Source of the DNA: Candidatus Adlerbacteria bacterium
GTDB lineage: Bacteria > Patescibacteriota > Minisyncoccia > Phycocordibacterales > SBAW01
Reading direction: 5' to 3'
Length of the DNA stretch: 64,000 nt
NCBI GenBank assembly: GCA_037135035.1
Contig: JBAXLB010000001.1
Span: 23,102 to 87,101, forward strand
Shown: piece after piece, positions 24,801 through 50,868 of the stretch
How the letters are laid out: each line of letters opens with the position of its first letter
How positions within the stretch are numbered: the stretch's first letter is position 1
Made by a program: the position numbers and the translations under genes
Notes under the pieces: model-generated
What the model was told of the DNA's origin: nothing
The model's database searches: none
Seen by the model: only the letters and a program-made list of their open reading frames with translations

Positions 24801-27003
24801 CGCAAACACGGTGCTTGCAAACAATACCTCCGGCTCTGCGGCACCGACCGCCATTGCGACGTCGTCGTTGTTCCAAAATGCGAGCGCAACACTCTCTGGC
24901 CTTTTGACATCAACCGACTGGACGACCTTTAATAACAAAGGTTCGGGCACGGTCACTTCGGTTACTGGCACCTGGCCTATCATCTCGTCAGGTGGTGCAA
25001 CACCAGCAATCTCCTTCGGTGGCCTCTCAACATCAACTGCCGCAGTCGTGGGCAATATCCCGTACTTCTCTGGAGTAAATACATTCGCAAACGTTGCAAC
25101 AACAGCACCGGCCATTGGCTCAGTGCTCACATATTCGGGAACCCTAGGAAGCCTTGTAGGCGGAGTAGGTGGTACCTTCGGTATCGCAAATACATCGATC
25201 ACCAACGCGATGCTTGCAGGCTCAATTGCCTACAGCAAGCTCTCACTGACAGGTGCTATTTTGAACGCTGACCTAGCCGGAAGTATCGCTGCGTCAAAAC
25301 TCGTTGGCACCGATATAACTACTGTTGGCACCATTACTTCCGGTACCTGGAGTGGTTCGTTTGGTGCAGTCAGCGGCGCAAACTTGACCAACCTGACCGC
25401 TGCAAATGTTACTGGTTCTCACACACTTTCGGACGGGGTACTAAGTACCAATGTGCCACTTTTGAACGTGGCAAATACATTTAGTAGTACGGGAATTACG
25501 TCCTTTGGAGGAAGTGTTGGCATTGTAACCACAAACCCGCTTGCAAAACTGGAAGTGGTAGGCTCATCGCAAGCTGCCACCGACCGCAGTACACATTTTG
25601 AGCTTTCAACCGGTACGGGTTTGCTCACAGACGAAAAACTCGTCTTTGGTGTCCACGACGGCGACTACAGCTGGATCCAAGCTGTTAAGAACGGTACCGG
25701 ATACCGCAACTTGGCACTCGAACCAGGTGGCGGCAACGTTGGTATTGGTACCACTACGCCTGCAAGTAAATTATCGATAGAGGCTGCGGTAACAGCGGGT
25801 ACAGCTCCTGGTCTGTTGCTTAGCAATACAAATGGCTCTGTCGGGTCGGGTGCGGCAATTGATTTCTATTTTGGCGCATATAACAAGAGTTCTCGTATTT
25901 ACAGTTACGCCGTCAATGCCAATCAAGGGGATCTTCGTTTCGCTACAGCTAACGGAAGCAGTTTTGCAGATGCAATGACGATTCTCGGTAGTAATCAGTA
26001 TGTCGGTATTGGCAGCACATCGCCGTCGCGTGCAATGTCTATACAGTCGGCAGTGTCGACTGCACAGATGACAGTTGCGTACGACACCAGCCGCTATACC
26101 GACTTCCTGACAAATTCGACAGGTGACTTAACTATCACCCCACAAGGTCAAGATGCTACGCTCTACGACAGCAACTTGTGGATCTGCTCAGGTGTTGCAT
26201 GCCCAACAGGCACACCAACGGGTACGGGTAACATTATTGCCGAGACAAACATCGGCATCGGTACCACCACGCCGAAGTATCGCCTTACTATAGAGTCACA
26301 AAGCACTTCGGAAGACTTGTTCCAAATTGCAACATCGTCGAACCAAAAAGTATTTATCGTCGACCGGAACGGCAGTGTGGGTATAGGTACTACCACGCCA
26401 ACACGTCAGTTCTCCATCTCCGACAGGCTCTTTGTCGGTGCCGGGGGCGTAAGCGGCATGGGTACAGCAACCTCGACCTTTATGGGTGACATAAAAATCA
26501 CCGGTAAACTCGATGTTGGTACTATCGACCCGGTCTACACAATTGACGGCGTGAAGTATGCAACCTACGGTCACTCAACTGTTGGTATTAAAGAAGAGGC
26601 TGTCGAGGTGCTTGAAGTGACAAACAAAAACCCAAAGACCGGCAAATTTGAGATAAAGATTTCGTTTAAAGATCTCGACAAGGGTTCGGACCTCTGGCTC
26701 TTCTACCAAGTGACAGACTTCGGTACCAACTGGAAGAATTTGGTCATTAACCTCACGGCATCGTTTGACGGTAGTGTCTTCTACACCAAAGTACCAAACG
26801 AAGCAGCGGTTATAATCTCTACCTCGCAACCAGGGGAAGTGTCCGCTCGGTTTATTGCAAACCGCTACGACTCGAGCAAGTGGCCAAACATCCGCCCAGA
26901 CCAAAGTGGTCCGTATAAGGGCCATGAGCTTGAGACAAGTGCAGGGCAAGGTATGCCGCTGGGCACAGAGCCGATAAGCTCTGCGCTCGACGCAGCGCTT
27001 TAG
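18802..27003 (+). CDS. Giant (2733 aa) cell-surface fibre/adhesin-like protein. It has an N-terminal excisionase-like HTH module, a single TM helix and a large T/S/G/A/N-rich repetitive ectodomain with tail-fibre-like 'VGIGTTxP' motifs.
   Basis: One uninterrupted 8.2-kb ORF. TM segment 'GVFFAAGSALLLGSVVFAG' at ~aa 100. Three families of long internal repeats. C-terminal repeats 'GNVGIGTTTPASKL', 'GSVGIGTTTPTRQF' and others typical of phage tail-fibre/tailspike-like beta-structures. Confidence 0.85.
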   Translation: MNTLLSQHGEQMLSARKVAERLGCAQDYVSKLCREGKLAGKQIDGAWFIEQESISTFEKMREVAKIARAEALADQRRKENKEYQIQRAGEFKKQFFARAVGAVRTGVFFAAGSALLLGSVVFAGEHGKVNTVQETAAHTQQVGTSVAQHSALFFGTPTTSVALSAAVGETAAAAVGSFFSRVISYFFAAPAAHYVVAPENPTAYVPQQVTETQSSAPGPGAPVAPTKTVVVQQNTYPVIQRTLERVVSVGGISDAELTDRLNQLNNKLQSQISTIANPGYGSPRGNFDFSQAVNNLSNVTVHGVSGLTDADIPDTISLSGVTIGGATISSFTGTGLSVVNGVLTASGGSGFSTTSADYYVNASSTIPKTYSDNVFTGGNIFGNSTTTNATTTNLYIAGSVRGGGLTTSCIGSGDKIIWDATTGQFGCGTDAGGSGSGISGLKAQYGTAQTGATQTLATSTSGTDFTITSAGDIHTFNLPSASASNRGLLTAADFTTFNSKQSALSFAYPLLNSAGTISLAFSTTTANTWSALQTFTSGFLAAASSTVNNTLAVTGATTLGSTLNVLGQTTLATSLSGLLKATAGVVSTATAGVDYLTSANVFSYLFPGNATSTQLTFNGGFLSTASSTINSTFHIGGLSDGALAVFGGLVSSGATTTAGTGLTYSGNAFNVNSIQSISKLSNLASAGFVKTSSDGTLSVDTATYLTSALTSIGPAGQTTTGAAVTLASSTAGTDFTITGSGSTLTFNLPTASASNRGLLSSTDWNTFNNKGNVGYPFALSGNATSTLTQFNAGLTAFASSTIGSGTQSGGLTIFGGATTTANAYFGAAITGATTFTLPTLGTAAGAFLAVDANGQIIATTTPSGGGGGSGTVTNIATIYPLLGGPITNTGTLSLAFGTTTANIWGSLQTFSAGFLAAASSTVNGTFVVTGQTTLASSLNGPLQANQGLVSATSSVGTLYGGTGVTSYTTGDILYADATNHLAKLGIGSTGSVLKVAGGLPGWGLDATGGGSGGGSWSTTTSQVAGELINYSNNSTDIVTIGNNATTSAAFWFDPTALVGYISNKLGIGTSTPSQALSVQGNSYVSGTSFFGGAVTATSTLNVTGLSTLGSLNVTGATTLATSLTGLLKASSGVVSTAAYTDFPTIAAGTILANATGGTAAPTAVATSTLFGTGTGGQVLTWSAGVPTWAATTTYSAPLVFSNGNVSCTAASAGVAGCLSGTDWSTFNNKQATIAAAWPITLTGATVGFNGLSTSTAAVVGNIPYYSGVNTFANVATSAPAIGSVLTYSGTLGSLVGGVGGTFGIANTSITNAMLAGSIAYSKLALTGAILNADLAGSIAYSKLSLTGAILNADLAGSIAASKLVGTDITTVGTVTSGTWSGSFGTVSGANLTNLTAANVTGSHTLPDGVLSTNVPLLNAANAFSSTLNVAGISTLAGVLSTASSTFTNSLHISSLSDGALAVFGGLVSSGATTTAGTGLTYSGNAFNVNSIQSISRLSNLATAGFVKTASDGTLSVDTSTYLTSAVTSVTGTWPIISSGGNTPAISFGGLSTSTAAVVGNIPYFSGANTFANVATSAPAIGSVVTYSGTLGSFVGGVGGTFGIANTSITNAMLAGSIAYSKLSLTGAILNADLAGSIAYSKLSLTGAILNADLAGSIAASKLVGSDIATVGTIGTGVWQGTKIGLAYGGTNADLSATGGASQVLRQSSSGGAITVSQLAASDLSNGTTGSGAVALAGSPTFSGNAAFGNASTTQIGSTGNAYFATSAGSVGIGTTTPTSALSVQGNSYHSGTAFFGGAITATSTLTLSALSNGALAVFGGLVSSGATTTAGTGLTYTGNAFNVNTTQNVAKLSNLTTNGFVKTSGSDGTLSVDTSTYLTSALTSIGPTGQTTTGPAVTFASSTTGTDFTITGSGSTLTFNLPTASASNRGLLSSTDWTTFNNKGSGTVTAVSVASANGFAGSSSGGATPALTLTTTVTGLLKGNGTAISAAALTDFPAIAANTVLANNTSGSAAPTAIATSSLFQNASATLSGLLTSTDWTTFNNKGSGTVTSVTGTWPIISSGGATPAISFGGLSTSTAAVVGNIPYFSGVNTFANVATTAPAIGSVLTYSGTLGSLVGGVGGTFGIANTSITNAMLAGSIAYSKLSLTGAILNADLAGSIAASKLVGTDITTVGTITSGTWSGSFGAVSGANLTNLTAANVTGSHTLSDGVLSTNVPLLNVANTFSSTGITSFGGSVGIVTTNPLAKLEVVGSSQAATDRSTHFELSTGTGLLTDEKLVFGVHDGDYSWIQAVKNGTGYRNLALEPGGGNVGIGTTTPASKLSIEAAVTAGTAPGLLLSNTNGSVGSGAAIDFYFGAYNKSSRIYSYAVNANQGDLRFATANGSSFADAMTILGSNQYVGIGSTSPSRAMSIQSAVSTAQMTVAYDTSRYTDFLTNSTGDLTITPQGQDATLYDSNLWICSGVACPTGTPTGTGNIIAETNIGIGTTTPKYRLTIESQSTSEDLFQIATSSNQKVFIVDRNGSVGIGTTTPTRQFSISDRLFVGAGGVSGMGTATSTFMGDIKITGKLDVGTIDPVYTIDGVKYATYGHSTVGIKEEAVEVLEVTNKNPKTGKFEIKISFKDLDKGSDLWLFYQVTDFGTNWKNLVINLTASFDGSVFYTKVPNEAAVIISTSQPGEVSARFIANRYDSSKWPNIRPDQSGPYKGHELETSAGQGMPLGTEPISSALDAAL

Positions 27004-27016
27004 AAATAGGTACCTT

Positions 27017-27919
27017 TTATTTCGCTGCTTTTGGATTGTTCTTAAAAAAGTCCCAGGCTCGGTCGGTAGCGGCTGCAGTGTATGTGTGCGCGAGCCCTGT
27101 AATATATATGCCGCGTACTTCAGTGCTACTAGCACACGACACAAAAGTTTCTGTCCGTACGCCTTGATCGTTGCGTTGCTCGGCAGGGGTAGGACAATGT
27201 TCAAACGCTGCCCATAGTGCAACAGGATTTTTTGCAGGAATAGGTTCTTGCCGAGTTTTTGCTTGCGGCATTGGGTCGGATGTCCCAACGATAGAAAGGA
27301 GAGATATCGGGTTTTGTGGGGCAGGGAAGGATGTATACAAAAGGCCTGCAACAGGTGCTATGGCTGCGAGTGTGTCCGAGAGCTCACTCCCTAAACGGTA
27401 GGCAAATGTAGCGCCGTTTGAAAAACCAGTGGCAAATATGTGTTCCCGATTAACGTTGTTACTAAAAGTAATATCGCCGAGTATTGCACGTACATAGGCA
27501 ATGTCGTCCACACCGTCGTGCGTAATAGGGGGAATGTTTGCACCCACATGCCACAGGCGGATATTACGCGCTGGGTCGCCCAGCGTGAGGTTGAGAGGCT
27601 TCCTAGGGTCTTCCAGCGTGCCTTGTGCAAACACTACAATAAAGCCTTCGCGCTGTGCTTTTTCCTTCCAGCCCGAATACTGCGCCATCAGTTCAGCAGA
27701 GCCAAGTGGCCCGCCGCCGCCATGGAACACTAGTACCACGGGGAGAGATGAACTTGTGTGTTGTGGTGCGTAGATTAAATATTCACGCTCAAGATTTTGA
27801 ACGTGTATAGAAACAGTACGAAGTGTGTACGAGTTTGAGAACAGAAAAAAATATAGTGCGCATGCACTACTTGCGAGGAGTACTGCGGCAGAAATAAAAA
27901 TAATGTGTGTTCGTGTCAT
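27017..27919 (-). CDS. Secreted alpha/beta-hydrolase, PHB-depolymerase/feruloyl-esterase-like (LpqC family)
   Basis: Signal anchor, 'VVLVFHGGGG' oxyanion region and 'ATGFSNGA' nucleophile elbow (GxSxG). Confidence 0.65.
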   Translation of the reverse strand: MTRTHIIFISAAVLLASSACALYFFLFSNSYTLRTVSIHVQNLEREYLIYAPQHTSSSLPVVLVFHGGGGPLGSAELMAQYSGWKEKAQREGFIVVFAQGTLEDPRKPLNLTLGDPARNIRLWHVGANIPPITHDGVDDIAYVRAILGDITFSNNVNREHIFATGFSNGATFAYRLGSELSDTLAAIAPVAGLLYTSFPAPQNPISLLSIVGTSDPMPQAKTRQEPIPAKNPVALWAAFEHCPTPAEQRNDQGVRTETFVSCASSTEVRGIYITGLAHTYTAAATDRAWDFFKNNPKAAK

Positions 27920-28875
27920 CGCAGAATTTTTTTAAACATCACATCAAGCACCGGCAGGCTGCACAGAAATTCTTTTACAGAAGTTTTTGCAGGTGCAAAA
28001 GGCGACGCGAGTAGTAGCAGTGACCACAAAAATATATGGGACACAAACCCAATGTTTATCACTAAGTAATTACCTACATGGAAGAGTATAAGCAGTAGTC
28101 CCCAGGTGCGATGCAGCTTTGGGCGAAATGCGACAAAAAAAGAAAAAAGTAATAAGTAGAGGGTAAAAAGGTACCACGGGTATATAAGCAGGTAGTGTTC
28201 GACTGCCCAAGGCCCAAGCGCCGTGTGCACACCCGTAAGCAGCTGCCGGTCGGCGATTTGGAGCGCTGCCGAATGGAGCCCGAAAAAGTTTGACTGCCCG
28301 GCTACTATCTGTGCCGCGGCACCATAGAGTTTGCCGAGCCCGCCCATTGTGTAGGTAAGCAGGTTTTCCACCTGGACAGCAAAAAAAACGAGTAAAAATT
28401 TCATCCGTACAACAACAGGTGCGTCAGTTTTTTCGTATCCGTATGGCAAAAAAATAAATAAAAACGATGTGAGCAGCAACCCATATCCGTCTACGTCGAG
28501 CTGCAGTATCGATATATAAAGCGCGCAAAATTCAAACAACGCCAGGAACGAAAGTATGCGCGCAAGACGCCAGTGGGGCTTCCACGCAGCAAGTATGCTG
28601 GTGGTGATAAAAAATACTCGCACGCACGCATATGCTGTGGCGAAGCCGATAAGAGGGAACCAGCGTATAGGCCAGGGTGTTTCTATTTGGGTCTGCGCGC
28701 CAAATGATGTGTCCCAGGTAAAAAGTGCAACAGAAATAAAGAGCAGGAAAAAATAATACATCTGCACTACCGTGCGTGCAGAAAAAAACACCTGCATGTC
28801 TGCGGCATAGTGTTCAAGACGTCGGAGGGGCGAGTCTTTAAAAATATATTCGCGTAGTTGAACTAGATATTTCAT
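27916..28875 (-). CDS. Polytopic membrane protein, HTTM-like (vitamin-K-dependent gamma-carboxylase-related fold)
   Basis: Eight or more hydrophobic segments across 319 aa. The HTTM assignment is tentative. Confidence 0.3.
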   Translation of the reverse strand: MKYLVQLREYIFKDSPLRRLEHYAADMQVFFSARTVVQMYYFFLLFISVALFTWDTSFGAQTQIETPWPIRWFPLIGFATAYACVRVFFITTSILAAWKPHWRLARILSFLALFEFCALYISILQLDVDGYGLLLTSFLFIFLPYGYEKTDAPVVVRMKFLLVFFAVQVENLLTYTMGGLGKLYGAAAQIVAGQSNFFGLHSAALQIADRQLLTGVHTALGPWAVEHYLLIYPWYLFTLYLLLFSFFVAFRPKLHRTWGLLLILFHVGNYLVINIGFVSHIFLWSLLLLASPFAPAKTSVKEFLCSLPVLDVMFKKILR

Positions 28876-29405
28876 GGTGTGTGGTATGTGCCTAATATGT
28901 CGACGCGTTCAAGTGCTCCTGTTTTAAAGCGCTCTATGGGGTCGTAAGTTATTTTAACCACTTGCCAGGAAAGATCTTTTGGAAAATACGCGGCTTCGAG
29001 CTCTGCTCGTACTACGTCGGCCCCTGCAGTGTCGCCCGCCACAAGGGCTTTCCCCAAACGGCGGATACCATCGCGTGCGCGGTTTGTCTGTGCGTCTCCA
29101 ATAATGTCATTCGCTTCGCCAAATAATTCTGGGGGAGTGAGTGCTTTTCCTTTATACGTTACAAGCCGCACGGTGTACTGCGTGCTGAAGTGTTCGTTTG
29201 GGACAAGTGCAAATAAAAACCAATGAAAAAAAGGTGGGAAGCTTTTGTCGTGTGCTGAAGAAAAAAGGAAAAAAGTAGAAAGTCCAATAACAAAATAAAG
29301 CCCTAAAAATATACTCAGTAGTGTCCGCAGTCGCGATACCTCGTGAGTGTCTTTGGGAGAGAGGTTCATGCGTAAGAGAATAGCATGCGCTACACTGGAC
29401 TGCAT
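28872..29405 (-). CDS. Hypothetical membrane-anchored protein
   Basis: ORF with TM 'LLSIFLGLYFVIGLSTFFLF'. The start is probably the internal Met. No recognised domain. Confidence 0.35.
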   Translation of the reverse strand: MQSSVAHAILLRMNLSPKDTHEVSRLRTLLSIFLGLYFVIGLSTFFLFSSAHDKSFPPFFHWFLFALVPNEHFSTQYTVRLVTYKGKALTPPELFGEANDIIGDAQTNRARDGIRRLGKALVAGDTAGADVVRAELEAAYFPKDLSWQVVKITYDPIERFKTGALERVDILGTYHTP

Positions 29406-29406
29406 G

Positions 29407-30918
29407 CGCTGGAAGTACGCGACTTTTTTTGTGTGTTTAATGATAGTCTCTGGCTTGTGTGGATACGGCATATACGCCTATATGCATCGGGGGCCGCTCG
29501 ACTTAACCGGCCAGAGCACTGTTACTATTACCCTTACAAAAAACGGTTTTGTTCCAAATGAGATATACATTAATCGGGGCACAACTGTTGTGTTTAATAC
29601 AACAGCAGGAAACCCGTTTTGGCCCGCGTCTGACTTGCATCCATTCCACACTATATATTCCGCATTTGACCCCAAGGGCCCAGTTGCTGCCACAAGCACC
29701 TGGAGTTTTACGTTCGACAAAGATGGACACTGGAGCTTTCATGACCACATAGGCTTGGCGACCGGTGTGATTATTGTGGTACCTCCTGGTGCTACAGGAG
29801 ACGCAAAATACGATGTGCTTGGGGTCTGTGATGAGCCAGAACAAAGCGGACGTGCGGCATGTTACCGCCAACACATATTGCTTGCGCTTGATAAAAAAGG
29901 TTTGGATGGTGCGATGAATGAAGTGGCATCTGTGTATCAAAACTATCCGGAGTTCCGCCCAGAATGCCATTCGTTTTTGCATGACCTGGGGCTTATGGCA
30001 TATAAAAAGTATGGCGAGCATGTTCCTCCGGCCAATACTATGTATTGCGGGCAAGGGTTCTATCACGGTTACTTAGAAAGTTTTCTTATGGAGCGACATG
30101 GCGATATAAAACCAGCACTTGCATTTTGTACAGCAGAAGCTAAACGACTTGGCGAAAAAACTGTTGCGGGTTTGCAGTGCATGCACGGCATTGGACACAG
30201 CGTTATGGAATATTTGCTTACGACACGTCCTGACCTAAGTAACAACAGCAGGAATCTACAAATACTTCTGGGTCTGGGAGTTGCCGAATGTGCCGCGATG
30301 CCTTCCCCAGAAGGGAAGTTCCGTTGTGCGGACGGGGCGTTCGACGTATTTAAAGCATGGGTCAATGTTCAGAGTTTACAGACTGTCTATACAGATGTTT
30401 TTTCGCTCGACCACCCCTTTGCGTTGTGTACACCTTTGCACGAAACATGGCAGAGGGATGCTTGCGTATGGGAAATGGCAAAAGAAACACTTGTTATTGC
30501 TAACCATAATACGCGCACCTCACTGCAGTCGGTTATGCGTGCTGCGCGCACGTGGTTAGATGGGACATACATGTTTTCTGCAATAACAAGCGTTGCGTTT
30601 GTTTCAGCCGCAAACAATGTCGACATGTCGGATAAAAAACTTGTAGGGCTATGTGCCTCTGTTGTTGATACAACGCTCCATTCATATTGTATTGCTGGCC
30701 TTCTGCGCGGAGTTGTTTTTAACGGCGCGCCGGGAACTGAAGGTGCGCGAGGCGCGGAGTTGTGTCACGTACGTACACTCACGTCAGGTGAAAAAACGCT
30801 CTGTGCCAAGACACTTGTTACGACTCTTGTAAATAACTATGGCGAAGTGGCCCGTGCTGCGGCATGTGCCCTCGTAGCGGATATTCCCGGAACGGACAAA
30901 CTCTGTACACCACAGTAG
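29407..30918 (+). CDS. Cys/His-rich extracytoplasmic protein, paralog 1, with N-terminal cupredoxin-like domain
   Basis: Signal anchor. Cupredoxin-like beta-sandwich 'VTITLTKNGFVPNEIYINRGTTVVFNTTAGNPFWPASDLHPFH...HWSFHDHIG'. Core motifs 'CHSFLHDLG', 'YCGQGFYHGY', 'CMHGIGHSV', 'CADGAFD' and 'CTPLHETWQRDAC'. The ORF track starts at 29347. Confidence 0.6.
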   Translation, partial: RWKYATFFVCLMIVSGLCGYGIYAYMHRGPLDLTGQSTVTITLTKNGFVPNEIYINRGTTVVFNTTAGNPFWPASDLHPFHTIYSAFDPKGPVAATSTWSFTFDKDGHWSFHDHIGLATGVIIVVPPGATGDAKYDVLGVCDEPEQSGRAACYRQHILLALDKKGLDGAMNEVASVYQNYPEFRPECHSFLHDLGLMAYKKYGEHVPPANTMYCGQGFYHGYLESFLMERHGDIKPALAFCTAEAKRLGEKTVAGLQCMHGIGHSVMEYLLTTRPDLSNNSRNLQILLGLGVAECAAMPSPEGKFRCADGAFDVFKAWVNVQSLQTVYTDVFSLDHPFALCTPLHETWQRDACVWEMAKETLVIANHNTRTSLQSVMRAARTWLDGTYMFSAITSVAFVSAANNVDMSDKKLVGLCASVVDTTLHSYCIAGLLRGVVFNGAPGTEGARGAELCHVRTLTSGEKTLCAKTLVTTLVNNYGEVARAAACALVADIPGTDKLCTPQ

Positions 30919-30934
30919 GGCATGAGTACAATGA

Positions 30935-31495
30935 GTGCATATGGAACATGTATCTCATCACGACGAGCTTACCGCGAAAGACCCGGTCGTTGTTGTCACA
31001 ACAGGCCCTGTGTTTACTGTAGACCGCACGAAGCTCCCGACTGTAACGGACCTTCTCGGTGATGAATGGACGGTATGGAAGGGGCCGAAAGAAGGTGAAG
31101 GCCTTGAAGGAGAAGAAGACCAAGACGCTCGCGCAACTGCAGTGAACGCTTTTGATTTTAGCCGCATGAAATTTGTCCACGGTTTTAAAGATGGCGAAGA
31201 CTCTATCGATGGCGAGCAGAAACTAGAACGCTTAAAAGTGCTCCCCGACGTGCGTCCTGACTTTGCATTTGGAATAGGATTGTTTTTAGAGCAGGGGCAG
31301 ACAACACTGCGCTGGCTCTACGACAACCACGGCATCACCTGGTTTGAAATCCCGGGTACGGTGATGTGTCACGACGGCGGGTACCGATACTTTTTAATAC
31401 TGAGCAGGGAAGGCAGCGGTGCGTGGCATTGGGACTATCGCTGGCTTAAACACGAACGCCGTCGCGGCTGGTTGGCACCTATGTTTTCTCTATAG
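30935..31495 (+). CDS. Hypothetical cytoplasmic protein (acidic, no TM)
   Basis: 186-aa ORF. No recognisable domain. Confidence 0.35.
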   Translation: MHMEHVSHHDELTAKDPVVVVTTGPVFTVDRTKLPTVTDLLGDEWTVWKGPKEGEGLEGEEDQDARATAVNAFDFSRMKFVHGFKDGEDSIDGEQKLERLKVLPDVRPDFAFGIGLFLEQGQTTLRWLYDNHGITWFEIPGTVMCHDGGYRYFLILSREGSGAWHWDYRWLKHERRRGWLAPMFSL

Positions 31496-31945
31496 GGAGA
31501 TAGGGAGCAGGTCGCCGACAGTAATGCGACTTGCTTCCAGGCGTTGTTGGTCGGACGAATTGCGCATAATTATATAGATAGGTTCACCTACGCGTAAGTC
31601 TTTTTGGTCGATGTCTTCTACGGAGGCACGTTCAGTCACTCCCGACACTTTTGTGCCGCGTGTGCGTTGTATGACAGTTGCAGAAGTAACCCATGCTTGT
31701 AGTTGTTCGGTCTGCCCCTCTCCATCTGTATATGAGATACGCACCCACCGTTCGTCAGAGTTATTTTTTACCAGTGTTGCGATTCTCTGCACATCAGGAA
31801 TTTTGAGAAGGAGGTTCGTTTGCGCTTTTTTTACGGACACGTTTTGTGCTTGTTGAAATTGCAGCATATTTACCACACAGCTTGCTGCAAGCAAGAATGT
31901 GCAGATAAACAGAAGAGGTATGGCTAGTGAGTCTTTTGTATTCAT
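31490..31945 (-). CDS. Hypothetical secreted/membrane-anchored protein
   Basis: N-terminal hydrophobic segment 'LAIPLLFICTFLLAASCVV' after an internal Met start. Confidence 0.35.
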   Translation of the reverse strand: MNTKDSLAIPLLFICTFLLAASCVVNMLQFQQAQNVSVKKAQTNLLLKIPDVQRIATLVKNNSDERWVRISYTDGEGQTEQLQAWVTSATVIQRTRGTKVSGVTERASVEDIDQKDLRVGEPIYIIMRNSSDQQRLEASRITVGDLLPISL

Positions 31946-31949
31946 GAGG

Positions 31950-32387
31950 TTAAAACGATGACTGTAATAGTATAAGTGCATATGGCACCGATGTGTCTCC
32001 GGTAATCCATATGTCCGCGCGGACTTTTTCTCCGTCAATAATACTATGTTCCTTTGGAGCTACAAGAAGTCGAGTACTACTGATAACTCCGCCCGGTGTT
32101 TTTTGAGGATCTCGTACTAGTACGCGCGTGTCAGCGTCGTACCGTATGCGGACTTTTTTTTCGGCTGAGCCACTTCCTGCTGGTATATTCAGAAGAAACG
32201 TTTGTGGCCCCACGTCAGTAATTGTTCCTTGAAGCGACAGAGGGTAGGGCAGGGTTGCACTGTGTGGAGACGCAAGGGCCCACGAACCGCCTACCTGTTT
32301 TGGTGACACTACCGGCCATATATAGATTCCTGCACACACCCCAAGTGTAATACCAAGGACTAGGGTTAGCGCGGCCAGTGCTCTCAT
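31950..32387 (-). CDS. Hypothetical secreted protein
   Basis: Signal peptide 'MRALAALTLVLGITLGVCAG', 145 aa. Confidence 0.4.
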   Translation of the reverse strand: MRALAALTLVLGITLGVCAGIYIWPVVSPKQVGGSWALASPHSATLPYPLSLQGTITDVGPQTFLLNIPAGSGSAEKKVRIRYDADTRVLVRDPQKTPGGVISSTRLLVAPKEHSIIDGEKVRADIWITGDTSVPYALILLQSSF

Positions 32388-32412
32388 ATACTGTGCAGTA
32401 TACTAGAACTCT

Positions 32413-33873
32413 ATGCGCACATTCCGCTTGTATGTTCCTGCTATAAGTGTGGTTGCCGTATTCCTTCTCTATATAGGTGTCGGACAGACCTATGCAGACA
32501 CGATGGCATCCATTGCGGCAAGTCTATGCGCCCTGTACCTGTGTGGTTTGTCTATACTCTATGCGGGTATCCCACACCCCAAGGAGTGGAAGCCTTCGCA
32601 GTGGCTGCTTGTCGCATTTGTGTTTGTAGTATTGTGTACTACGATTTTTTCTGGAAATTTTTTGCATGCATTCTTTGGCTTTGCACTCGACATGACGTCG
32701 GGGGGTTTTATAGTCCTTATGTGCATCCTTGCGTTATTCGTAGGTGGCTTTTCGCGCGTGGTGCGTCAAGGCCTTTTTATTGCATCAACCTGTGTGCTTG
32801 TAGGTCTTTTGGTGTATCCGTATCTACGCACCGAACAGCTTGTGCGACCGTCACTTACAACAACACTACGGGTAGAGTCGGCGGCGTATACGGACCTCGG
32901 TGGCAAAGTACTTGTGGCCGGCATAGGGCCGAGCGCGTTTACTTATGCGTGGCAAAAATATCGCCCAGGGGAAGTGCTCGCCACCCCTTTTTGGAACGAA
33001 GATTTTTCCGTCGGCAGCGGCCTGCTCCCCACGTTGCTCGTAGAATGTGGGGCTATAGCGGCGCTGTTGTTTACCCTTAGTTTTTTTTCAGCTGTTGCTG
33101 AAGAATTTTTGCAGGTCATTACACGGACATATACAATGCGTCGTCGTGTGGTTGCGCTCGCTTCAGTCGCCGTTATTTTTTTTGCTCTCGCACTGCTCGT
33201 GTATGCAGAACCTTCAGCACCGCTGTTGCTTGCGGTGGCAGTCGCGCTTGGTTCGTGTAGATACGAAGATTCTACGTGTCTTCGTGTACGTCCTTTGGTA
33301 CGAACGATACTTTTTGGAATTTTAGCGGTACTTACTGTTGGCGTTTTGTATCTCGGACTTTCAGCTGCATTTTATTTTTACGCATATGCAAACATGCAGC
33401 AGCAGGACCTTTTGCGCGCGCGCAGTGCAGGAGAATATGCATACGCACTTTCGCCCACGGGACAAACTGACCGTTTGCTCGCACAGATACTCCGTTCAAG
33501 TGGCCACGCACTGGGTAATGCGGCTGCGTCGCAGGTGCAGGTGGGGCAGCTGTTTCATCGTGCAAGCATCTATGCACGCGCAGCAACAGTAACCGAGAGC
33601 GCGAATGCACAAAGTTGGAAATTACTCGGTATCACCCTTGCTGAAGAAATGTCGCTTGCGCCAAGCGAAGACGTATTTTACGAAAGTAAGGCGGCATTCG
33701 AACGCGCGCACGCAGAGTCGCCCAATGATCCCTCGGTACTATTTTTCCAAGCGCAACTTTATATATTAGCTGGTCAAAAGCAGCAGGCCGGAGACGCACT
33801 ACAAGCAGCCCTGGCGCTGCGACCGACCTATACCGAAGCAAGCGATCTTTTGGCTGCGGTGAAGGCTAAATAA
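32413..33873 (+). CDS. Polytopic membrane protein with C-terminal TPR-like domain (Wzy/O-antigen-ligase-like architecture)
   Basis: ~9 TM helices followed by Ala/Gln-rich helical repeats. The architecture resembles the 7695-9989 protein. Confidence 0.4.
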   Translation: MRTFRLYVPAISVVAVFLLYIGVGQTYADTMASIAASLCALYLCGLSILYAGIPHPKEWKPSQWLLVAFVFVVLCTTIFSGNFLHAFFGFALDMTSGGFIVLMCILALFVGGFSRVVRQGLFIASTCVLVGLLVYPYLRTEQLVRPSLTTTLRVESAAYTDLGGKVLVAGIGPSAFTYAWQKYRPGEVLATPFWNEDFSVGSGLLPTLLVECGAIAALLFTLSFFSAVAEEFLQVITRTYTMRRRVVALASVAVIFFALALLVYAEPSAPLLLAVAVALGSCRYEDSTCLRVRPLVRTILFGILAVLTVGVLYLGLSAAFYFYAYANMQQQDLLRARSAGEYAYALSPTGQTDRLLAQILRSSGHALGNAAASQVQVGQLFHRASIYARAATVTESANAQSWKLLGITLAEEMSLAPSEDVFYESKAAFERAHAESPNDPSVLFFQAQLYILAGQKQQAGDALQAALALRPTYTEASDLLAAVKAK

Positions 33874-33883
33874 CATTCTGTAG

Positions 33884-35125
33884 TTAGCGGATGTTGGGCA
33901 AGTCTAATTCGGTCGTGGTTAATTTCCCCGCCTCTATCAGCTGTGCAATTGCTTGCTGTACGTGAGGGTCAGTGAAGGCCTGTAGTTTTTCTGGTGGGTA
34001 AAAGAGGGCTAGCTGTTTTGCTATAGAAAGATAACAAACTTTTTCAGCGTCCAGTGCGTGTATTTGGTTTGATGCACACAAGGCAAGTGCTTTTGGATAT
34101 TCTTGCTCTGGAAAACCTCCGGTAAAAAGTGCGCTCGGGAATATAGTAATACACGAAACAAATAACTCTTTTGAGACAGTTGCGCATGCAGGTATAAGAG
34201 ACAGGTAAGAGTTATGCGGCATGGCTCGCAAAATAAGTACTCGCATTGCCGGTCGAAACGCCTGGACGCGCAGTGAGGGGTCTTCTACCTGAGCAATGTG
34301 TTCTATAAGGGAAGGTACCGTAAGACTAGCTTCTCTAAAAAACCGGTCGGCAACGCCTGCGTAACACATACGCTTCCATGATTTGGCGAGCGTTGTGCAG
34401 AGTGCAAACGGGTGCAACTTGTCAAAGGAAAGGCCGTGTTGTTTTTGGGCAGCCCATTCAAGTAAGGCCGTAAATACACCCCGGTAGCATGTCTGACGTT
34501 CTATGTCTGTCAGTGTGTTGGGCAGAGTGTCGCATTGCCCGAGCGTATCTACTGCAAGTTGGCGTGCGTCCTTGGATGTGTCGTGTGCATGCGCAAGGAC
34601 AAACCCATGCCCGGCAGCGTGGTAACACTGCACGTTTATTGTTGGAAATATATTCGAGAAGCGCGTTTCAAAACTACTACATGTTGCAGTTACAAACGGC
34701 ACGTTTGGATGGTCTGCAAACAAGTGCATAAAAAAACCGTGAGGAACGCCAAAGGTGCAAACGTTTGCGGTCTCGGGGAAGTCGACTGTTTCCAGGCTTC
34801 CTCCGCTATGGAGTAGTTTGGAATACATTTGGTCTCCCATCCAATGGGCGTCGGCATGGCAATTTTCGGGAACTAATATGTTGGGGTAATGACTATATAA
34901 GTATGCGTAGTCGTGGAGCATGTCTGCCGCACCTCCTGTTGCGAGAGATGTATCGAGCAGTCCATACCAACATTCAATTTTGTCCGGCGCAGATGTATGA
35001 GAGTAGTCACATACGGCCGCATGGTATACGAAAGACTGTTGGCTAAAAAAATATATTCCAACACTAAAAATTACTGCAAGTAGTGCTACCCAGAATATGT
35101 GTTGCAGGCATTTTTTTGTGTTCAT
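33884..35125 (-). CDS. Cys/His-rich extracytoplasmic protein, paralog 2
   Basis: Signal anchor. Motifs 'NCHADAHWMGD', 'CTFGVPHGFFMH', 'CYHAAGHGF', 'CYRGVFT' and 'CTTLAKSWKRMCYAGVA' match the family core. Confidence 0.6.
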   Translation of the reverse strand: MNTKKCLQHIFWVALLAVIFSVGIYFFSQQSFVYHAAVCDYSHTSAPDKIECWYGLLDTSLATGGAADMLHDYAYLYSHYPNILVPENCHADAHWMGDQMYSKLLHSGGSLETVDFPETANVCTFGVPHGFFMHLFADHPNVPFVTATCSSFETRFSNIFPTINVQCYHAAGHGFVLAHAHDTSKDARQLAVDTLGQCDTLPNTLTDIERQTCYRGVFTALLEWAAQKQHGLSFDKLHPFALCTTLAKSWKRMCYAGVADRFFREASLTVPSLIEHIAQVEDPSLRVQAFRPAMRVLILRAMPHNSYLSLIPACATVSKELFVSCITIFPSALFTGGFPEQEYPKALALCASNQIHALDAEKVCYLSIAKQLALFYPPEKLQAFTDPHVQQAIAQLIEAGKLTTTELDLPNIR

Positions 35126-36006
35126 TGGAGATTAAACAATCTTTCTACTTGGCCTTCGCAGAGATTTTTTTTGTCATCAACAGTAAAGATTTGGCCGCAA
35201 ACTTTTTTTGATTCCTCTAGAGTTTGTGCGTGTACAACTATTTCGGCTGCTCCGCGCGCGCACACTGTGCGTAGGGCGGGGATAGAGTCATATTTCTGGC
35301 AATACAGGCCGAGTTGCTTCAAATGTTCAGGGGTTCTTTCGTTCTTAAATAGTGACGAAAACCACAGACGAGGAAATTCAAATACGCATTGCGGCATGTC
35401 ATGTTCCCCAAGTGCAAGTTCGTCGCATGGTGCATACGGCGCCGCCTGCGATACAGGAAAGGGTTCCGTGCCTGGAAGCATAGTCCGGTTAAAATATTCC
35501 ATAAACAAACCAGACTCGCAGGCTCCCACCACGTCCCCATGTTTAGAAATACTTTTACACGCAGCTACACTTTGTAGCGCAGAAGTTTTGGTGTACCCAA
35601 AATATCCCACCAGACCGTGCCCTATCCCATGTTCGCACACAAGAGGGTCTGCGCTCTTCGCACATATAGTATCGAGCTTTTTTATTATAGGGAGACCATA
35701 TTCCGCAAGTGCGCGGCCGTACATTTCATGTAAACATGCATACTGTAATGTGTCATCGCACACAGTCATTCCAGAAATTCCTTGTTCTTGATACAGCGCT
35801 GTGCCAAAATAATGACCTTCAAAATGTTCGGTAGTACTCGAGAGCAACTCCCTGTACGCGGGCGCCGCTCCTGTGGAATGTATACGTTCTTCCCAATACT
35901 TCACTCTCGCGTTTTCAACTACAGTAGGTGAGTGTAGTGTATGGTAGAGAAAAAAAACTACTAGAATTCCTCCAAGGAATAAGAATATTTTTATTGCACG
36001 GGGCAT
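35122..36006 (-). CDS. Cys/His-rich extracytoplasmic protein, paralog 3
   Basis: Signal anchor. 'CDDTLQYACLHEMYG', 'CEHGIGHGL', 'CESGLFMEYFN' and 'CDELALGEHDMPQCVFE'. The ORF track extends to 36084. Confidence 0.55.
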   Translation of the reverse strand: MPRAIKIFLFLGGILVVFFLYHTLHSPTVVENARVKYWEERIHSTGAAPAYRELLSSTTEHFEGHYFGTALYQEQGISGMTVCDDTLQYACLHEMYGRALAEYGLPIIKKLDTICAKSADPLVCEHGIGHGLVGYFGYTKTSALQSVAACKSISKHGDVVGACESGLFMEYFNRTMLPGTEPFPVSQAAPYAPCDELALGEHDMPQCVFEFPRLWFSSLFKNERTPEHLKQLGLYCQKYDSIPALRTVCARGAAEIVVHAQTLEESKKVCGQIFTVDDKKNLCEGQVERLFNLQ

Positions 36007-36010
36007 ACAA

Positions 36011-37483
36011 TTATAAATTTTTTGTTCTAAGTGAAGAAGTGCATACAGCTTGGTCGCCAACAGGGATAGTCTTGCATATAGCACTCAGGGCGGTGTTGCT
36101 ATACAGGGCACTCAATGTGTCTATCGTGCGCCTGTAACAATGGGTCCGTGCATCAGATATTGGAAAGAGCGAGCAGTAGGCGAGCATCTGTAGATATTCT
36201 GCTCCGGGCTTGCCTCCAGATGAGAGTGCGTTTGCTACACCATCAATAACTGCCTCCCGCTCTTTTTCTTCTGGAAATGCAATAGTTTCTTCGTACAATT
36301 GTTCCAGTGTCTTGTCTTGCAAGTTGTGTCGCACGGTGTCGTCAAACAACGCCATAAGGCCAGAATACCGTGCATTTCCGGGCAACTGATTTATAAAATA
36401 AATTGCATGTGTGTAGTCGTATCCAACATAGTGTATGTAGCCCATTGCGAGTTCGCTGTAACATGACTGCCTATATGCAGGTGTCTGGGTGCGGCAGAGT
36501 GCTGCGGGGTCGCTTGCACGATAGGAAAGATTATAATCGTTTGAACCTTCAGCGATAGAAAGGGAATTAAAAACTCCAGATGCACACCGTGCGCGCCACT
36601 GTGTGTTTGTTGTAACAGTCTCACATTCTCCAATTGCCTGCATCGCCATTGTTTTTTCATTGCCCCAAGATGCCCCGGGCAATGAGTCAAAGAGTGCATG
36701 CCCAATACCGTGAAAGCACGCAGCCGCTGCCGACGAGCCTGCTGCTCGCGAGGGTAGAACAGGGTCGGTGAGTAGCCCTATACAGTAAGAGTTTGCTTCG
36801 TGTAAATAATCTCTCCCGAGTTCTATAAGCATTTGTTCCATAAAACCGTGGTAAAAACCGTACCCACAGTAACTCGTTTCTGGGCGGGCGATATGCACAC
36901 CTGTTTTTTTATACTCACTGTAGGCGGTACTGCCGAGCACATGCATGACGTCGTGACACTGGTTTTGAAATTCGGGACTTGTTTGGTAGTACTGGCTTAC
37001 AGCGTCGAACCCTGCAGAGAGACCGCTCTGTTTCATCGTGGCTGTTATCTCAGCAGCCCAACAATACCCTCGTGTAATGTCGTGTGACGCGGAAAGACAA
37101 TTTTTTATGCTTTCGTCTTTCGCTCCTTCAACCAATATGGAGCCGCGCATTTCGGGCACTATACGGTCATGAAAGTTCCATACCCCTGCCTGCTCAAATG
37201 TATGAGACCAGATTTCAGTTGGCAGAAGGGCATGTCCCGGGTCGAAAACAAAAGAAAGGCTTTGTGAAGAATATAACTCCGAAGCAGGCCAGAAGGCTGC
37301 GCCCGCGGTGGAGATAAACTGCACGATGTCACCTTTGTGTATGAGTACTGTCTTTGGGATAAAACCTTGCTCTGTGCGAGTAATGGTCACCGTATGTGAG
37401 TGGTGAGTGAGGTAAAAAAATACTCCACATACACATAGAACTAGTGCAACAACACTGCCGACACGTGTTCCGGGGCCTCGCAT
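36011..37483 (-). CDS. Cys/His-rich extracytoplasmic protein, paralog 4, with N-terminal cupredoxin-like domain
   Basis: 'TVTITRTEQGFIPKTVLIHKGDIVQFISTAGAAFWPASELY...WNFHDRIVPEMRGSILV' cupredoxin-like domain. Core 'CHDVMHVLG', 'YCGYGFYHGF', 'CFHGIGHAL' and 'CASGVFN'. Confidence 0.6.
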   Translation of the reverse strand: MRGPGTRVGSVVALVLCVCGVFFYLTHHSHTVTITRTEQGFIPKTVLIHKGDIVQFISTAGAAFWPASELYSSQSLSFVFDPGHALLPTEIWSHTFEQAGVWNFHDRIVPEMRGSILVEGAKDESIKNCLSASHDITRGYCWAAEITATMKQSGLSAGFDAVSQYYQTSPEFQNQCHDVMHVLGSTAYSEYKKTGVHIARPETSYCGYGFYHGFMEQMLIELGRDYLHEANSYCIGLLTDPVLPSRAAGSSAAAACFHGIGHALFDSLPGASWGNEKTMAMQAIGECETVTTNTQWRARCASGVFNSLSIAEGSNDYNLSYRASDPAALCRTQTPAYRQSCYSELAMGYIHYVGYDYTHAIYFINQLPGNARYSGLMALFDDTVRHNLQDKTLEQLYEETIAFPEEKEREAVIDGVANALSSGGKPGAEYLQMLAYCSLFPISDARTHCYRRTIDTLSALYSNTALSAICKTIPVGDQAVCTSSLRTKNL

Positions 37484-37511: not shown

Positions 37512-38105
37512 GTGGTATACTGCGTTTGTATGAAGACGGTGGTTTCTACGTTTGCCAGTTTTGTAGCAATATTTTTTCTGTCGTTCTCCTTTGTTCATGC
37601 CGTCACACTTACCACGGCAGTGTCTATTACCGGCAGCGCAAGCGTAATAGGCGCCCTCTCCAAAGGCTCCGGTACCTTTGTTATCGACGACCCGCTTGAC
37701 CCTGCCAACAAATTGCTCTTTCACTCATTCGTCGAGTCACCTGACGTTAAAAATATCTACGACGGTATTGCAACACTCGACAGCGCGGGGGAAGCAGTGG
37801 TTGACTTACCTGATTATTTTTTAGCTCTTAACCAAGACTTCCGCTATTTGGCGACTCCAATTGCAATCTCTATGCCAAATTTGTATTTAAAAAAAGAAGT
37901 AGCTAAGCGGTGGTTTGGTCTCTTTGGCGCGGTACAGTTTAAAATATCTGGAGGAGTGCCCGGAGCTCGAGTCTCCTGGCAAGTGACTGGTATTCGCCAC
38001 GACCCATATATTTTGGCAAACCCAATTATCCCAGAAGTTGAAAAGACCGATACAACTATAGTGAAAAAAGGTGAGTATCTATTTGAAGGATATGAGAAAA
38101 AGTAA
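37512..38105 (+). CDS. Secreted protein, tandem paralog A (tail-fibre-like C-terminal domain family)
   Basis: Signal peptide. Conserved block 'SKGSGTFVIDDPLDPANKLLFHSFVESPDVKNIYDGIATLD...GARVSWQVTGIRHDPYILANPIIPEVEKTDTTIVKKGEYLFEGYEKK' shared with the next two genes. Confidence 0.55.
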   Translation: MVYCVCMKTVVSTFASFVAIFFLSFSFVHAVTLTTAVSITGSASVIGALSKGSGTFVIDDPLDPANKLLFHSFVESPDVKNIYDGIATLDSAGEAVVDLPDYFLALNQDFRYLATPIAISMPNLYLKKEVAKRWFGLFGAVQFKISGGVPGARVSWQVTGIRHDPYILANPIIPEVEKTDTTIVKKGEYLFEGYEKK

Positions 38106-38652
38106 CTTCCAAGCCAGAGTATATTTGTTTGCAACGTTGTTGCTGTGTGTGCCTGTAGTTGCCCTCGGGGTGACGTTAAAAGGAAATGTAAAATTTGCTG
38201 GGAACCTTGCTATTACAGGCGCCCTTTCCAAGGGCTCCGGTACCTTCGTTATCGACGACCCAGTCGACCCCGCTAACAAACTTCTCTACCACTCGTTCGT
38301 CGAGTCACCTGATGTAAAAAATATCTACGATGGTATTGCAACGTTGGATGACAAGGGAGAGGTAATAGTACAGCTGCCAGAGTATTTCGACGCGCTCAAT
38401 AAAGATTTTAGATATCAATTTTTCCCACTCGACCATGCCGACCCAAATGTATATTTGAAAGTGGGGGCAGACAAAACAAAAAATCAGTTTACTATTGCAG
38501 GGGGCACTCCGGGAGCCCGTGTCTCCTGGCAAGTCACCGGCATCCGCCACGACCCATACATTTTGGCGCATCCTATAGTCCCGGAAGTCGAAAAGACCGA
38601 CACAACGCTTGTGAAGAAAGGCGAGTATCTATTTGAAGGATATGAAAAATAA
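38092..38652 (+). CDS. Secreted protein, tandem paralog B
   Basis: The same conserved block, 80-90% identical to A. Its start overlaps the stop of A. Confidence 0.55.
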   Translation: MRKSNFQARVYLFATLLLCVPVVALGVTLKGNVKFAGNLAITGALSKGSGTFVIDDPVDPANKLLYHSFVESPDVKNIYDGIATLDDKGEVIVQLPEYFDALNKDFRYQFFPLDHADPNVYLKVGADKTKNQFTIAGGTPGARVSWQVTGIRHDPYILAHPIVPEVEKTDTTLVKKGEYLFEGYEK

Positions 38653-39379
38653 TATATATACCTATACGGTCTCGGTGCTCTCGCTACTTGCCTGTGTGCT
38701 TATTCCGCATACTACCCATGCGTATTCACAAGGAGACTACTATGCTGAGTCGGCATATTATTCGCAGCCGTACTACCAAGGAACGTACTATTCACAGTCA
38801 ACGTATTACTCACAAAGTACGTACTATTCACAGTCAACGTATCAGACAACCTTTACAAAAAATGCTACTGCATCGAAAACTGTTGCAGTAACAGGTTCTA
38901 TTTCCAAAGGCTCCGGCACCTTCGTCATTGACCATCCACTGGACCCTGCTAACAAACTTCTCTTCCACTCATTCGTCGAGTCACCTGATGTAAAAAATAT
39001 CTACGATGGTGTTGCTATGTTGGATGGCAAGGGAGAGGTAACAGTAAAGCTTCCGGCATACTTCGAAGTACTTAACAAAGACTATCGTTACTTAGTGCGG
39101 CCACTCGGGCAACCCATGCCTAACCTCTATATAAGCGGCGAAGTGCAAAATAACCAGTTCGGCATTAGCGGAGGCGCCCCGGGCGGGCGCGTCTCCTGGC
39201 AAGTTACCGGCATCCGCCACGACCCCTACATACTCGCCAACCCAATAGTTCCTGAAGTTGAAAAGACCGACACAACATTAGTAAAGAAAGGGGAGTATAT
39301 TTACTCCGCCGGATATACAAAAAATTCGCTTGGCACGCTTAGTTCATTTGCGGCATTTTTTGCGGGGCTGTTCCACTAG
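38642..39379 (+). CDS. Secreted protein, tandem paralog C, with N-terminal YSQSTY repeat region and C-terminal hydrophobic tail
   Basis: The same conserved block plus '(YYSQST)x4' low-complexity repeats. Its start overlaps the stop of B. Confidence 0.55.
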   Translation: MKNNIYTYTVSVLSLLACVLIPHTTHAYSQGDYYAESAYYSQPYYQGTYYSQSTYYSQSTYYSQSTYQTTFTKNATASKTVAVTGSISKGSGTFVIDHPLDPANKLLFHSFVESPDVKNIYDGVAMLDGKGEVTVKLPAYFEVLNKDYRYLVRPLGQPMPNLYISGEVQNNQFGISGGAPGGRVSWQVTGIRHDPYILANPIVPEVEKTDTTLVKKGEYIYSAGYTKNSLGTLSSFAAFFAGLFH

Positions 39380-42860: not shown

Positions 42861-42898
42861 TTTGAGGTTTTGCATTGCCGTCAAGTATACTAAATAGT

Positions 42899-45117: not shown

Positions 45118-45122
45118 ATACT

Positions 45123-46346: not shown

Positions 46347-46864
46347 AAAAGTTTTTACTTCTAAGTATTACGCTGCTATTGGTACCTTTGGGTGTGTTTG
46401 CTCATACAACCGGCAAAAGTGTAGAGCAAACCGTAGGAAAGTACTTACTAGACGTGGGCTATAACCCGGACCCAGTTGTTGCGGGGGACTCTACCTATTT
46501 TGATTTTAAAATATATCAAAACGGCCCTACACCGGGTGACGCACCGTACCGCAATGTATGGGTACGTATCTACCAAGACAATGTCACGTTGTTTGCAGCC
46601 GGCATTGCGCATATGGAGACTGGCCCAACAGGGCTTGTGTATACGTTTGCAGCGCCCGGCGTGTACAGCGTTTCGGTGCGATACGAAACAGCTGACGATA
46701 CGCTAGGCGAGGCAACATTTCAAATACCTGTTGCTGCTGGAGAAACGACAGCATATCTATGGCTCTGGTATATAGCTTCGGGTGCAGTTGGTTTTTGTAT
46801 GGGGGCCTCAGCTTTGTATGTGTATGCGAGGAAAAAGAAGCGCTGGGAGCGTGGTATTCTGTAA
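46343..46864 (+). CDS. Hypothetical secreted protein with C-terminal TM anchor
   Basis: Signal peptide 'MKKFLLLSITLLLVPLGVFA' and a C-terminal 'YLWLWYIASGAVGFCMGASALYVYA' TM helix followed by 'RKKKR'. Confidence 0.45.
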   Translation: MKKFLLLSITLLLVPLGVFAHTTGKSVEQTVGKYLLDVGYNPDPVVAGDSTYFDFKIYQNGPTPGDAPYRNVWVRIYQDNVTLFAAGIAHMETGPTGLVYTFAAPGVYSVSVRYETADDTLGEATFQIPVAAGETTAYLWLWYIASGAVGFCMGASALYVYARKKKRWERGIL

Positions 46865-48882: not shown

Positions 48883-48883
48883 T

Positions 48884-50867: not shown

Positions 50868-50868
50868 T

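Follow-up and report, generated by a model that had tools for sequence, protein, structure and literature searches.

A cysteine-less cupredoxin-fold domain joined to a Cys/His-rich helical core in a Candidatus Adlerbacteria contig

Described Cys-less cupredoxins and the locus studied

Cupredoxin-fold domains that lack the cysteine ligand are already known, namely Cup-I of EfeO, Cup-II of FtrB, and YcnI. FtrB of Brucella (PDB 8VUK) is reported to bind Cu(II) via D118 and to oxidise Fe(II) (PMC11966278), while YcnI is a membrane-tethered protein whose cupredoxin fold binds Cu(II) at the N-terminal His (PMC8424229). For bacteria of the candidate phyla radiation (CPR, or Patescibacteria), which represent a large share of bacterial diversity and whose surface biology is almost entirely unknown, two papers on metabolism assign to the products of cupredoxin or 'plastocyanin' genes the role of supplying NirK with electrons (PMC5581439, PMC12931201). 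The present analysis concerns a domain of this fold found in two members of a paralogous protein family. The genes lie in a 64,000-nt stretch of contig JBAXLB010000001.1 of a Candidatus Adlerbacteria bacterium, an uncultured, ultra-small member of the CPR (hereafter the window, in whose positions all coordinates are given). The domain is referred to as the FWPAS domain after its sequence signature, and neither this subtype with its signature nor the partner modules seem to have been described before.

From the open reading frame (ORF) and the AlphaFold2 (AF2) model, paralog 1 (29407-30918, + strand, 503 aa) consists of a signal-anchor, an FWPAS-type cupredoxin domain and a helical core rich in Cys and His. 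The anchor is a predicted N-terminal helix at residues 2-26 (MRWKYATFFVCLMIVSGLCGYGIYAY; 29410-29484, +) with Arg/Lys upstream of it, and by the positive-inside rule the rest of the protein past the anchor is predicted to lie outside the cell. The cupredoxin-fold domain with the full family motif was delimited by profiles, AF2 and Foldseek to residues ~35-126 (29509-29784, +), and the helical core occupies 29809-30915 (+). The ORF of paralog 4 (36011-37483, - strand, 490 aa) has the same plan with a degenerate FWPAS-type domain, placed by AF2 and Foldseek at residues ~29-121 (37121-37399, -). An alignment of four paralogs showed ~95 extra residues between the hydrophobic anchor and the core in paralogs 1 and 4 only. 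The original prediction for this DNA had described a beta-sandwich of ~100 aa inserted at this point in these two proteins; the ORFs and the alignment agree with it, and the peptides it quoted are exactly those obtained on translation of paralogs 1 and 4.

Fold and ligand positions of the FWPAS domain

The presence of a cupredoxin fold in both paralogs is close to certain. Paralogs 1 and 4 covered nearly the whole profile of Cupredoxin_1 (PF13473), with scores of 15.5 and 12.3 bits, respectively, under the 27-bit gathering cutoff; the domain of paralog 1 taken in isolation reached 20.9 bits, also under the cutoff. The same profile matched 36 of 37 isolated domains of the family (best E 7.8e-8), with 67.5 bits reached by relatives such as P0037. 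The homologues of the window proteins numbered 36 and were all from uncultured CPR bacteria, the labels including one Candidatus Kaiserbacteria and a paralog on the window's own contig (Candidatus Adlerbacteria). Searching again with the full-length alignment added no further homologues, and neither paralog's domain had an NCBIfam match. The profile of the domain family matched amicyanin over the full domain length (E 1.8e-6), followed by plastocyanins, NirK and multicopper oxidases.

Structure prediction gave the same result. The full-length AF2 model of paralog 1 (predicted local distance difference test score, pLDDT, 92.2; predicted template modelling score, pTM, 0.85) comprised a helix at residues 2-26, strands at 38-125 and an all-helical core at 146-489. 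When this model was compared with the PDB by Foldseek, the top 42 matches were all cupredoxin folds aligned to the N-terminal domain, with target-normalised template modelling scores (TMt) of <=0.77. The domain of paralog 4 modelled alone had a pLDDT of 93.1 and gave 329 Foldseek matches at E<=0.001, of which plastocyanin and amicyanin ranked top (E 1.5e-7; query-normalised score, TMq, 0.80-0.83) and EfeO of Escherichia coli (7wgu) was at rank 31 (TMq 0.74). The cupredoxin fold proposed originally was therefore found in both paralogs, by profile search as well as by structure prediction. The accompanying suggestion of a resemblance to EfeO-type domains stood only in part. PF13473, the family that InterPro names 'EfeO-type cupredoxin-like', is the nearest Pfam family; however, no specific kinship with EfeO emerged, and plastocyanin and amicyanin were structurally closer (0.80-0.83 vs 0.74).

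The ligand positions were then read from an alignment of 250 domain instances to the family profile. The instances were drawn from an exhaustive HMMER search that returned 9268 representatives at E<=0.001, 270 of them also passing E<=1e-30. Canonical repeats, found with the same profile in multi-repeat proteins, had Cys80-His83-Met86 (profile numbering) in 58/58 instances and His45 in 44/58. The FWPAS subtype, with the signature FWPAS[DN]xHPxH...FD...H[DN]H, retained His45 and carried seven additional residues, FWPAS[DN]x, inserted directly before it. Position 80 was Asp in 176 instances and Asn in 14, and positions 83 (most commonly A, N, S, R or D) and 86 were variable, such that the His and Met of the type-1 loop were gone. 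At the same time, His48, His79 and His81 were gained. For the 190 domains whose residue 80 is Asp or Asn, His45, His48 and His81 were each present in 179 and His79 in 184; those without these His were mostly non-FWPAS repeats in multi-repeat proteins. Only the N-terminal His is thus kept from the type-1 blue copper ligand set (His...Cys-x(n)-His-x(n)-Met). The absence of a type-1 Cys/His/Met site, which had been noted from the letters of the window, was confirmed in this way, with Asp at the Cys position and the downstream His and Met missing. A blue-copper site in the FWPAS domain was rejected as a candidate, being contradicted by the ligand sequence.

In paralog 1 the five conserved residues are H78, H81, H112, D113 and H114. 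The alignment to the canonical Cys-His-Met repeats identified FWPASDLHPFH (29617-29649, +) as the seven-residue insertion followed by His78, the counterpart of the type-1 N-terminal His ligand, and by His81, and the profile alignment placed the Asp of F-H112-D113-H114 (29737-29748, +) at the type-1 Cys position, between two invariant His. By the same profile alignment, position 80 (D113) corresponds to Cys92 of amicyanin, position 83 to His95 and position 86 to Met98. The H-D-H also aligned ungapped with residues 506-508 of ascorbate oxidase (1aoz), and with the YHCH of the N. maritimus multicopper oxidase 9cck. The register of this C-terminal motif is robust. In the H506-C507-H508 of ascorbate oxidase the Cys is the type-1 copper ligand, and the two His beside it coordinate the trinuclear cluster, which lies between domains. 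The ligand swap in the FWPAS domain keeps the positions that multicopper oxidases use for an interface cluster, which bears on the evolution of cupredoxin metal sites. For the N-terminal loop, an ungapped alignment to the canonical repeats equated His45 with the type-1 N-terminal His.

The four His and the Asp/Asn were near-invariant across domains that are only ~45-55% identical, whether fused, standalone or in tandem, and the conserved His occupy or flank copper-binding positions of the homologues. Conservation of this kind is typical of ligands or catalytic residues. The pattern FWPAS[DN]xHP was confirmed at 260 loci in species genomes, and the best 80 of these 260 were in metagenome-assembled genomes mostly labelled as CPR/Patescibacteria groups; overall, the signature marks the domain in hundreds of sequence clusters. 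The best reading of these data is that the FWPAS subtype represents a Cys-less cupredoxin type specific to the CPR/Patescibacteria.

The domain of paralog 4 departs from this pattern, three of the four family His being replaced by Tyr, Gln and Arg. In an ungapped comparison with paralog 1, Y71-S-S-Q74 (37262-37273, -) replaces H-P-x-H with the loss of two His, and the family alignment revealed the third loss (His to Arg) in F-H-D-R107 (37163-37174, -). The codons at the first two lost His are TAT and CAA, compared to CAT and CAC in paralog 1. No other FWPAS-type instance among the aligned domains was missing several of these His. Since an exact-sequence look-up found the identical protein on four independent public contigs, the losses are not due to an assembly error. 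Close relatives of this degenerate domain were not found among JGI metagenome contigs. Paralog 4 keeps the fold and is probably metal-free at the FWPAS site. The two domains of the window are accordingly not equivalent, as the domain is present in two paralogs and the full His motif in paralog 1 only.

Of the described proteins, amicyanin and plastocyanin gave the best profile and structural matches to the FWPAS domain and share its fold and size. The ligand loop is as short as that of amicyanin and the N-terminal His ligand is retained; however, the FWPAS domain has Asp/Asn for Cys, no loop His or Met, a seven-residue insertion and three extra invariant His, and it sits on a membrane anchor and is in most cases fused to a large helical domain. 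FtrB shares the Asp at the position of the ligand Cys. It differs in its D118-x-x-H121 and in the conserved Glu residues with which it binds the Fe(II) mimic, whereas the FWPAS domain has His-Asp-His, a variable +3 position and no Ftr/Efe permease in its context. The Cup domain of EfeO is comparable in that PF13473 is the nearest Pfam family and in its similar plan of a cupredoxin followed by a helical metal-binding domain, but the window proteins fall under the Pfam cutoff and their C-terminal domain is not of the M75/imelysin type. With multicopper oxidases and NirK the likeness lies in the His-x-His, which aligns with H-C-H (1aoz 506-508; YHCH in 9cck), and also in the H-P-x-H, which is reminiscent of the H-P-x-H-x-H found in oxidase domain 3. 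In contrast to these proteins, the FWPAS domain consists of one cupredoxin unit, without a partner to complete a cluster, and has neither the Cys nor the third His of an H-P-x-H-x-H motif.

Partner modules, proposed role and alternatives

The helical core contains 16 conserved Cys together with His188, His192, His220, His260 and His264 (alignment and AF2 model of paralog 1). Several of the Cys were lost pairwise across the family; as they disappear in pairs, the core Cys are consistent with disulfides. The five His were kept in nearly every paralog examined. The window encodes seven core paralogs in total, each with the five His. Paralog 4 is the first gene of an operon in which it is followed by two core-only genes, paralog 3 (35122-36006, -, 294 aa, ATG at 36006; core hidden Markov model (HMM) E 3.8e-33), which is also called at 294 aa in public assemblies, and paralog 2 (33884-35125, -, 413 aa; E 7.6e-89). 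A second tandem array at 42875-46346 is made up of three core-only paralogs, at 42875-44053 (+, 392 aa; E 1.9e-15), 44050-45117 (+, 355 aa; E 2.1e-21) and 45123-46346 (+, 407 aa; E 2.5e-24), the last of these being paralog 7. All five core His are present in each of the three. In a related genome, eight core paralogs were found in a row, with the cupredoxin domain on just one.

Searches of the core against Pfam (M75/imelysin included), NCBIfam and PDB sequences matched no family. Its profile gave only chance-level hits to PDB sequences (an amidase motif, CFHGTGH, at E 0.06, and MANF), and a search with a core-only profile retrieved just unnamed 'hypothetical proteins'. Foldseek matched the core to generic alpha-solenoids only, with no imelysin-like fold among them. 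The association of the two modules was recurrent: the domain was fused to the core in 118 of 181 proteins, with the modules in reverse order in P0036, and at 79 related loci a fused gene was present in 51, a standalone anchored domain in 42 and core-only paralogs also in 64.

The second partner is encoded directly after the three-gene array. The gene at 46343-46864 (+) specifies a small protein with a signal peptide ending in GVFA, a mature N-terminal His directly after it, a beta domain of ~115 aa and a C-terminal membrane anchor. The gene overlaps the stop codon of paralog 7 at its start (ATGA) and is read as translationally coupled to that paralog. Homologues were present at 32 of 83 related loci, often directly 3' of a standalone cupredoxin gene. 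A His immediately past the predicted signal peptide was found in all 33 sequences of the family, and full-length members end in a C-terminal membrane anchor. In a class comprising P0064, P0105 and P0172 (~9 representatives), the N-terminal-His module is fused to the FWPAS domain itself. Searches with the N-terminal-His domain against PDB sequences, Pfam (DUF1775 included) and NCBIfam gave nothing significant, and hhalign detected no similarity to the FWPAS profile (probability 1.4%). The product may be a metal binder of the histidine-brace type. It shares with YcnI (DUF1775) the signal peptide, the mature N-terminal His, the small beta-sandwich and the C-terminal anchor; the likeness is one of layout, no sequence match to DUF1775 or YcnI having been found.

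Taken together, it is judged somewhat probable that the Cys-less FWPAS domain forms a metal site at the cell surface and is partnered there with the core and the N-terminal-His protein. The site would be His-based and type-2-like, located at the 'northern' end of the barrel. The domain is expected to be extracytoplasmic because of the positive-inside rule and its disulfide-rich partner. Cu(II) would be the best guess for the metal, favoured because of the ancestry of the fold, the precedent of FtrB and the YcnI-like partner. At the surface, the disulfide-rich five-His core and the membrane-anchored N-terminal-His protein would cooperate with the domain in the capture, relay or use of a metal ion, with paralog 1 carrying the intact site and paralog 4 lacking it. 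The original proposal that the proteins handle metal or carry out redox chemistry on the outside of the cell is plausible, and motif conservation and the gene-neighbourhood links strengthen the idea.

Several observations count against such a site. The N-terminal loop can be aligned in more than one register, as HMMER pairs the amicyanin ligand His53 with Ser42 and His56 with His45. Residue 80 may be structural and not a ligand, because Asn replaces Asp in 14/190. No copper transporter, copper chaperone, NirK or other cuproenzyme was found in the window, and none was recurrent at the 79 loci. The organism also looks fermentative, and the 7-8 core paralogs per array are more in keeping with an enzyme or binding family that has diversified than with a simple metal relay.

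Four other explanations were weighed. A plastocyanin-type blue-copper electron carrier, for example a donor to NirK, would accord with the name 'plastocyanin' that JGI gives to several family members, with plastocyanin and amicyanin as the closest structures, and with the assumption in CPR genome papers that single-domain cupredoxins feed NirK (PMC5581439, PMC12931201). As three of the four type-1 ligands are gone, with Asp/Asn for the Cys and the loop His and Met dropped, the domain cannot serve as such a carrier, and with no NirK found in the window this explanation is scarcely credible. An EfeO/FtrB-like ferroxidase, in which a Cu(II) cupredoxin oxidises Fe(II) and passes Fe(III) to a helical domain for uptake, has more in its favour: PF13473 is the nearest Pfam family, EfeO (7wgu) was a structural match with a TMq of 0.74, the order of cupredoxin, then helical domain, parallels Cup plus M75 in EfeO, and FtrB likewise has Asp for the ligand Cys and oxidised Fe(II) in vitro (PMC11966278). 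However, the His that FtrB has three residues past the Asp is gone, position 83 being variable, and no counterparts of FtrB E84, E86 and E93 were seen in the family consensus, at which no test was specifically aimed. Neither a Pfam match (M75 included) nor an imelysin-like fold was obtained for the core, and an FTR1/EfeU permease or an EfeB/DyP peroxidase was neither in the window nor recurrent among the neighbours at related loci. Specific membership of the EfeO group was rejected, as the core is not M75/imelysin and EfeU and EfeB are not among the neighbours, and a ferroxidase in the wider sense is considered quite unlikely.

The remaining two explanations were each given a low probability, a little above that of the ferroxidase. 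Metal-free cupredoxin folds exist, for example in subunit II of quinol oxidase, and the FWPAS domain could be a structural or recognition domain, either an Ig-like spacer or a docking module, with the His serving packing, pH sensing or protein contacts. The confident fold prediction for paralog 4 despite the loss of three His, the tolerance of Asn for Asp and the lack of a copper-homeostasis context all point in this direction. What makes it unlikely is the near-invariance of the four His and the Asp/Asn at ~45-55% identity, in every context, and the location of the His at or beside the copper-binding positions of homologues. The most interesting of the rival readings, and an equally unlikely one, is a composite copper centre in which the flanking His and His81 would complete an inter-domain or inter-subunit site of type-2/type-3-like character in a new copper oxidase. 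The alignment of H-D-H with H-C-H of multicopper oxidases would suit such a centre, and the five core His, or else another subunit, could provide the partner. The pTM of 0.85 suggests a defined packing of the domain on the core in the model, and both modules are tied together by the reversed order seen in P0036 and by cases in which separate, neighbouring genes encode them. Against it, the core His are equally conserved in paralogs without the domain and in paralog 4, and the His are also retained in standalone domains, where no core is fused.

A further reading, that the FWPAS cupredoxin, the five-His core and the N-terminal-His protein constitute an unrecognised extracellular copper system of CPR bacteria, is put forward as a doubtful but attractive possibility. 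It might take the form of a new copper enzyme, with the active centre between the His-x-His face of the cupredoxin and the helical His cluster, or of a new route of copper capture in organisms without any of the known copper importers. If it holds, many 'plastocyanin' calls in CPR genomes would be of the Cys-less type. The JGI/IMG label 'plastocyanin' was seen on the Cys-less proteins P0011, P0032, P0033, P0073, P0083 and P0172, and is misleading for the FWPAS subtype. Should the CPR genes treated as NirK donors be of the FWPAS type, that assignment would need revisiting. The domain is tied to two uncharacterised modules, the expanded His/Cys helical family and the N-terminal-His protein, which makes concrete proteins available for expression when asking whether these minimal cells have a use for copper, or some other metal, on their outside.

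Gene neighbourhood and other features of the window

The recurrent neighbours at the 79 loci were accounted for by housekeeping synteny (GAPDH, ribulose-phosphate epimerase, transketolase) and a small cupredoxin-like family. In the window, genes for GAPDH, ribulose-phosphate 3-epimerase and a split transketolase (47842-51864, +) lie 3' of the array, and such genes adjoin arrays at about 6-10 other CPR loci. As the same housekeeping genes recur beside the arrays, the array lies in a conserved chromosomal neighbourhood and not on a mobile element. The small family is anchored, has a domain of ~95 aa with a conserved Cys22...YGYxCys81-Asp and occurs outside the window, at 13 related loci that include L019, L075, L033, L060, L070, L049 and L013. 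By hhalign (probability 65.7%, E 5.8e-5) it is distantly related to the FWPAS domain, with Cys81 falling on the former ligand position.

Paralog 1 is flanked by a gene pair on the opposite strand (27916-29471, -) encoding a multi-pass membrane protein of 319 aa and a protein of 199 aa, neither of which matched any family. The 5' end of the 199-aa ORF, as called, overlaps the start of paralog 1 by 65 bp. The pair also adjoins the paralog 1 orthologue in L005 and was found in L030. Just upstream of this neighbourhood, 27017-27919 (-) encodes a secreted esterase of 300 aa that resembles extracellular short-chain polyhydroxyalkanoate/polyhydroxybutyrate depolymerases (NCBIfam NF050058, E 3.5e-30, below cutoff). 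It is preceded by a giant ORF of 2733 aa (18802-27003, +), rich in Gly, Ser, Thr and Ala and with long internal repeats, e.g. SITNAMLAGSIAYSKL(A/S)LTGAILNADLAGSIA..., which is probably a surface fibre or adhesin.

Three tandem paralogs at 37512-39379 (+; 197, 193 and 248 aa) encode small, secreted or anchored proteins with the common motif ...GSGTFVIDxPLDPANKLL(F/Y)HSFVESPDVKNIYDG...RVSWQVTGIRHDPYILA. They had no match in Pfam or NCBIfam, and homologues were found upstream of core arrays in L001, L002, L056 and L077. Large multi-pass membrane proteins with C-terminal tetratricopeptide repeats are encoded at 32413-33873 (+), between paralog 1 and the paralog 4-3-2 operon, and at 7695-9989 (+), the product of the latter also carrying an O-antigen-ligase (Wzy_C) domain.

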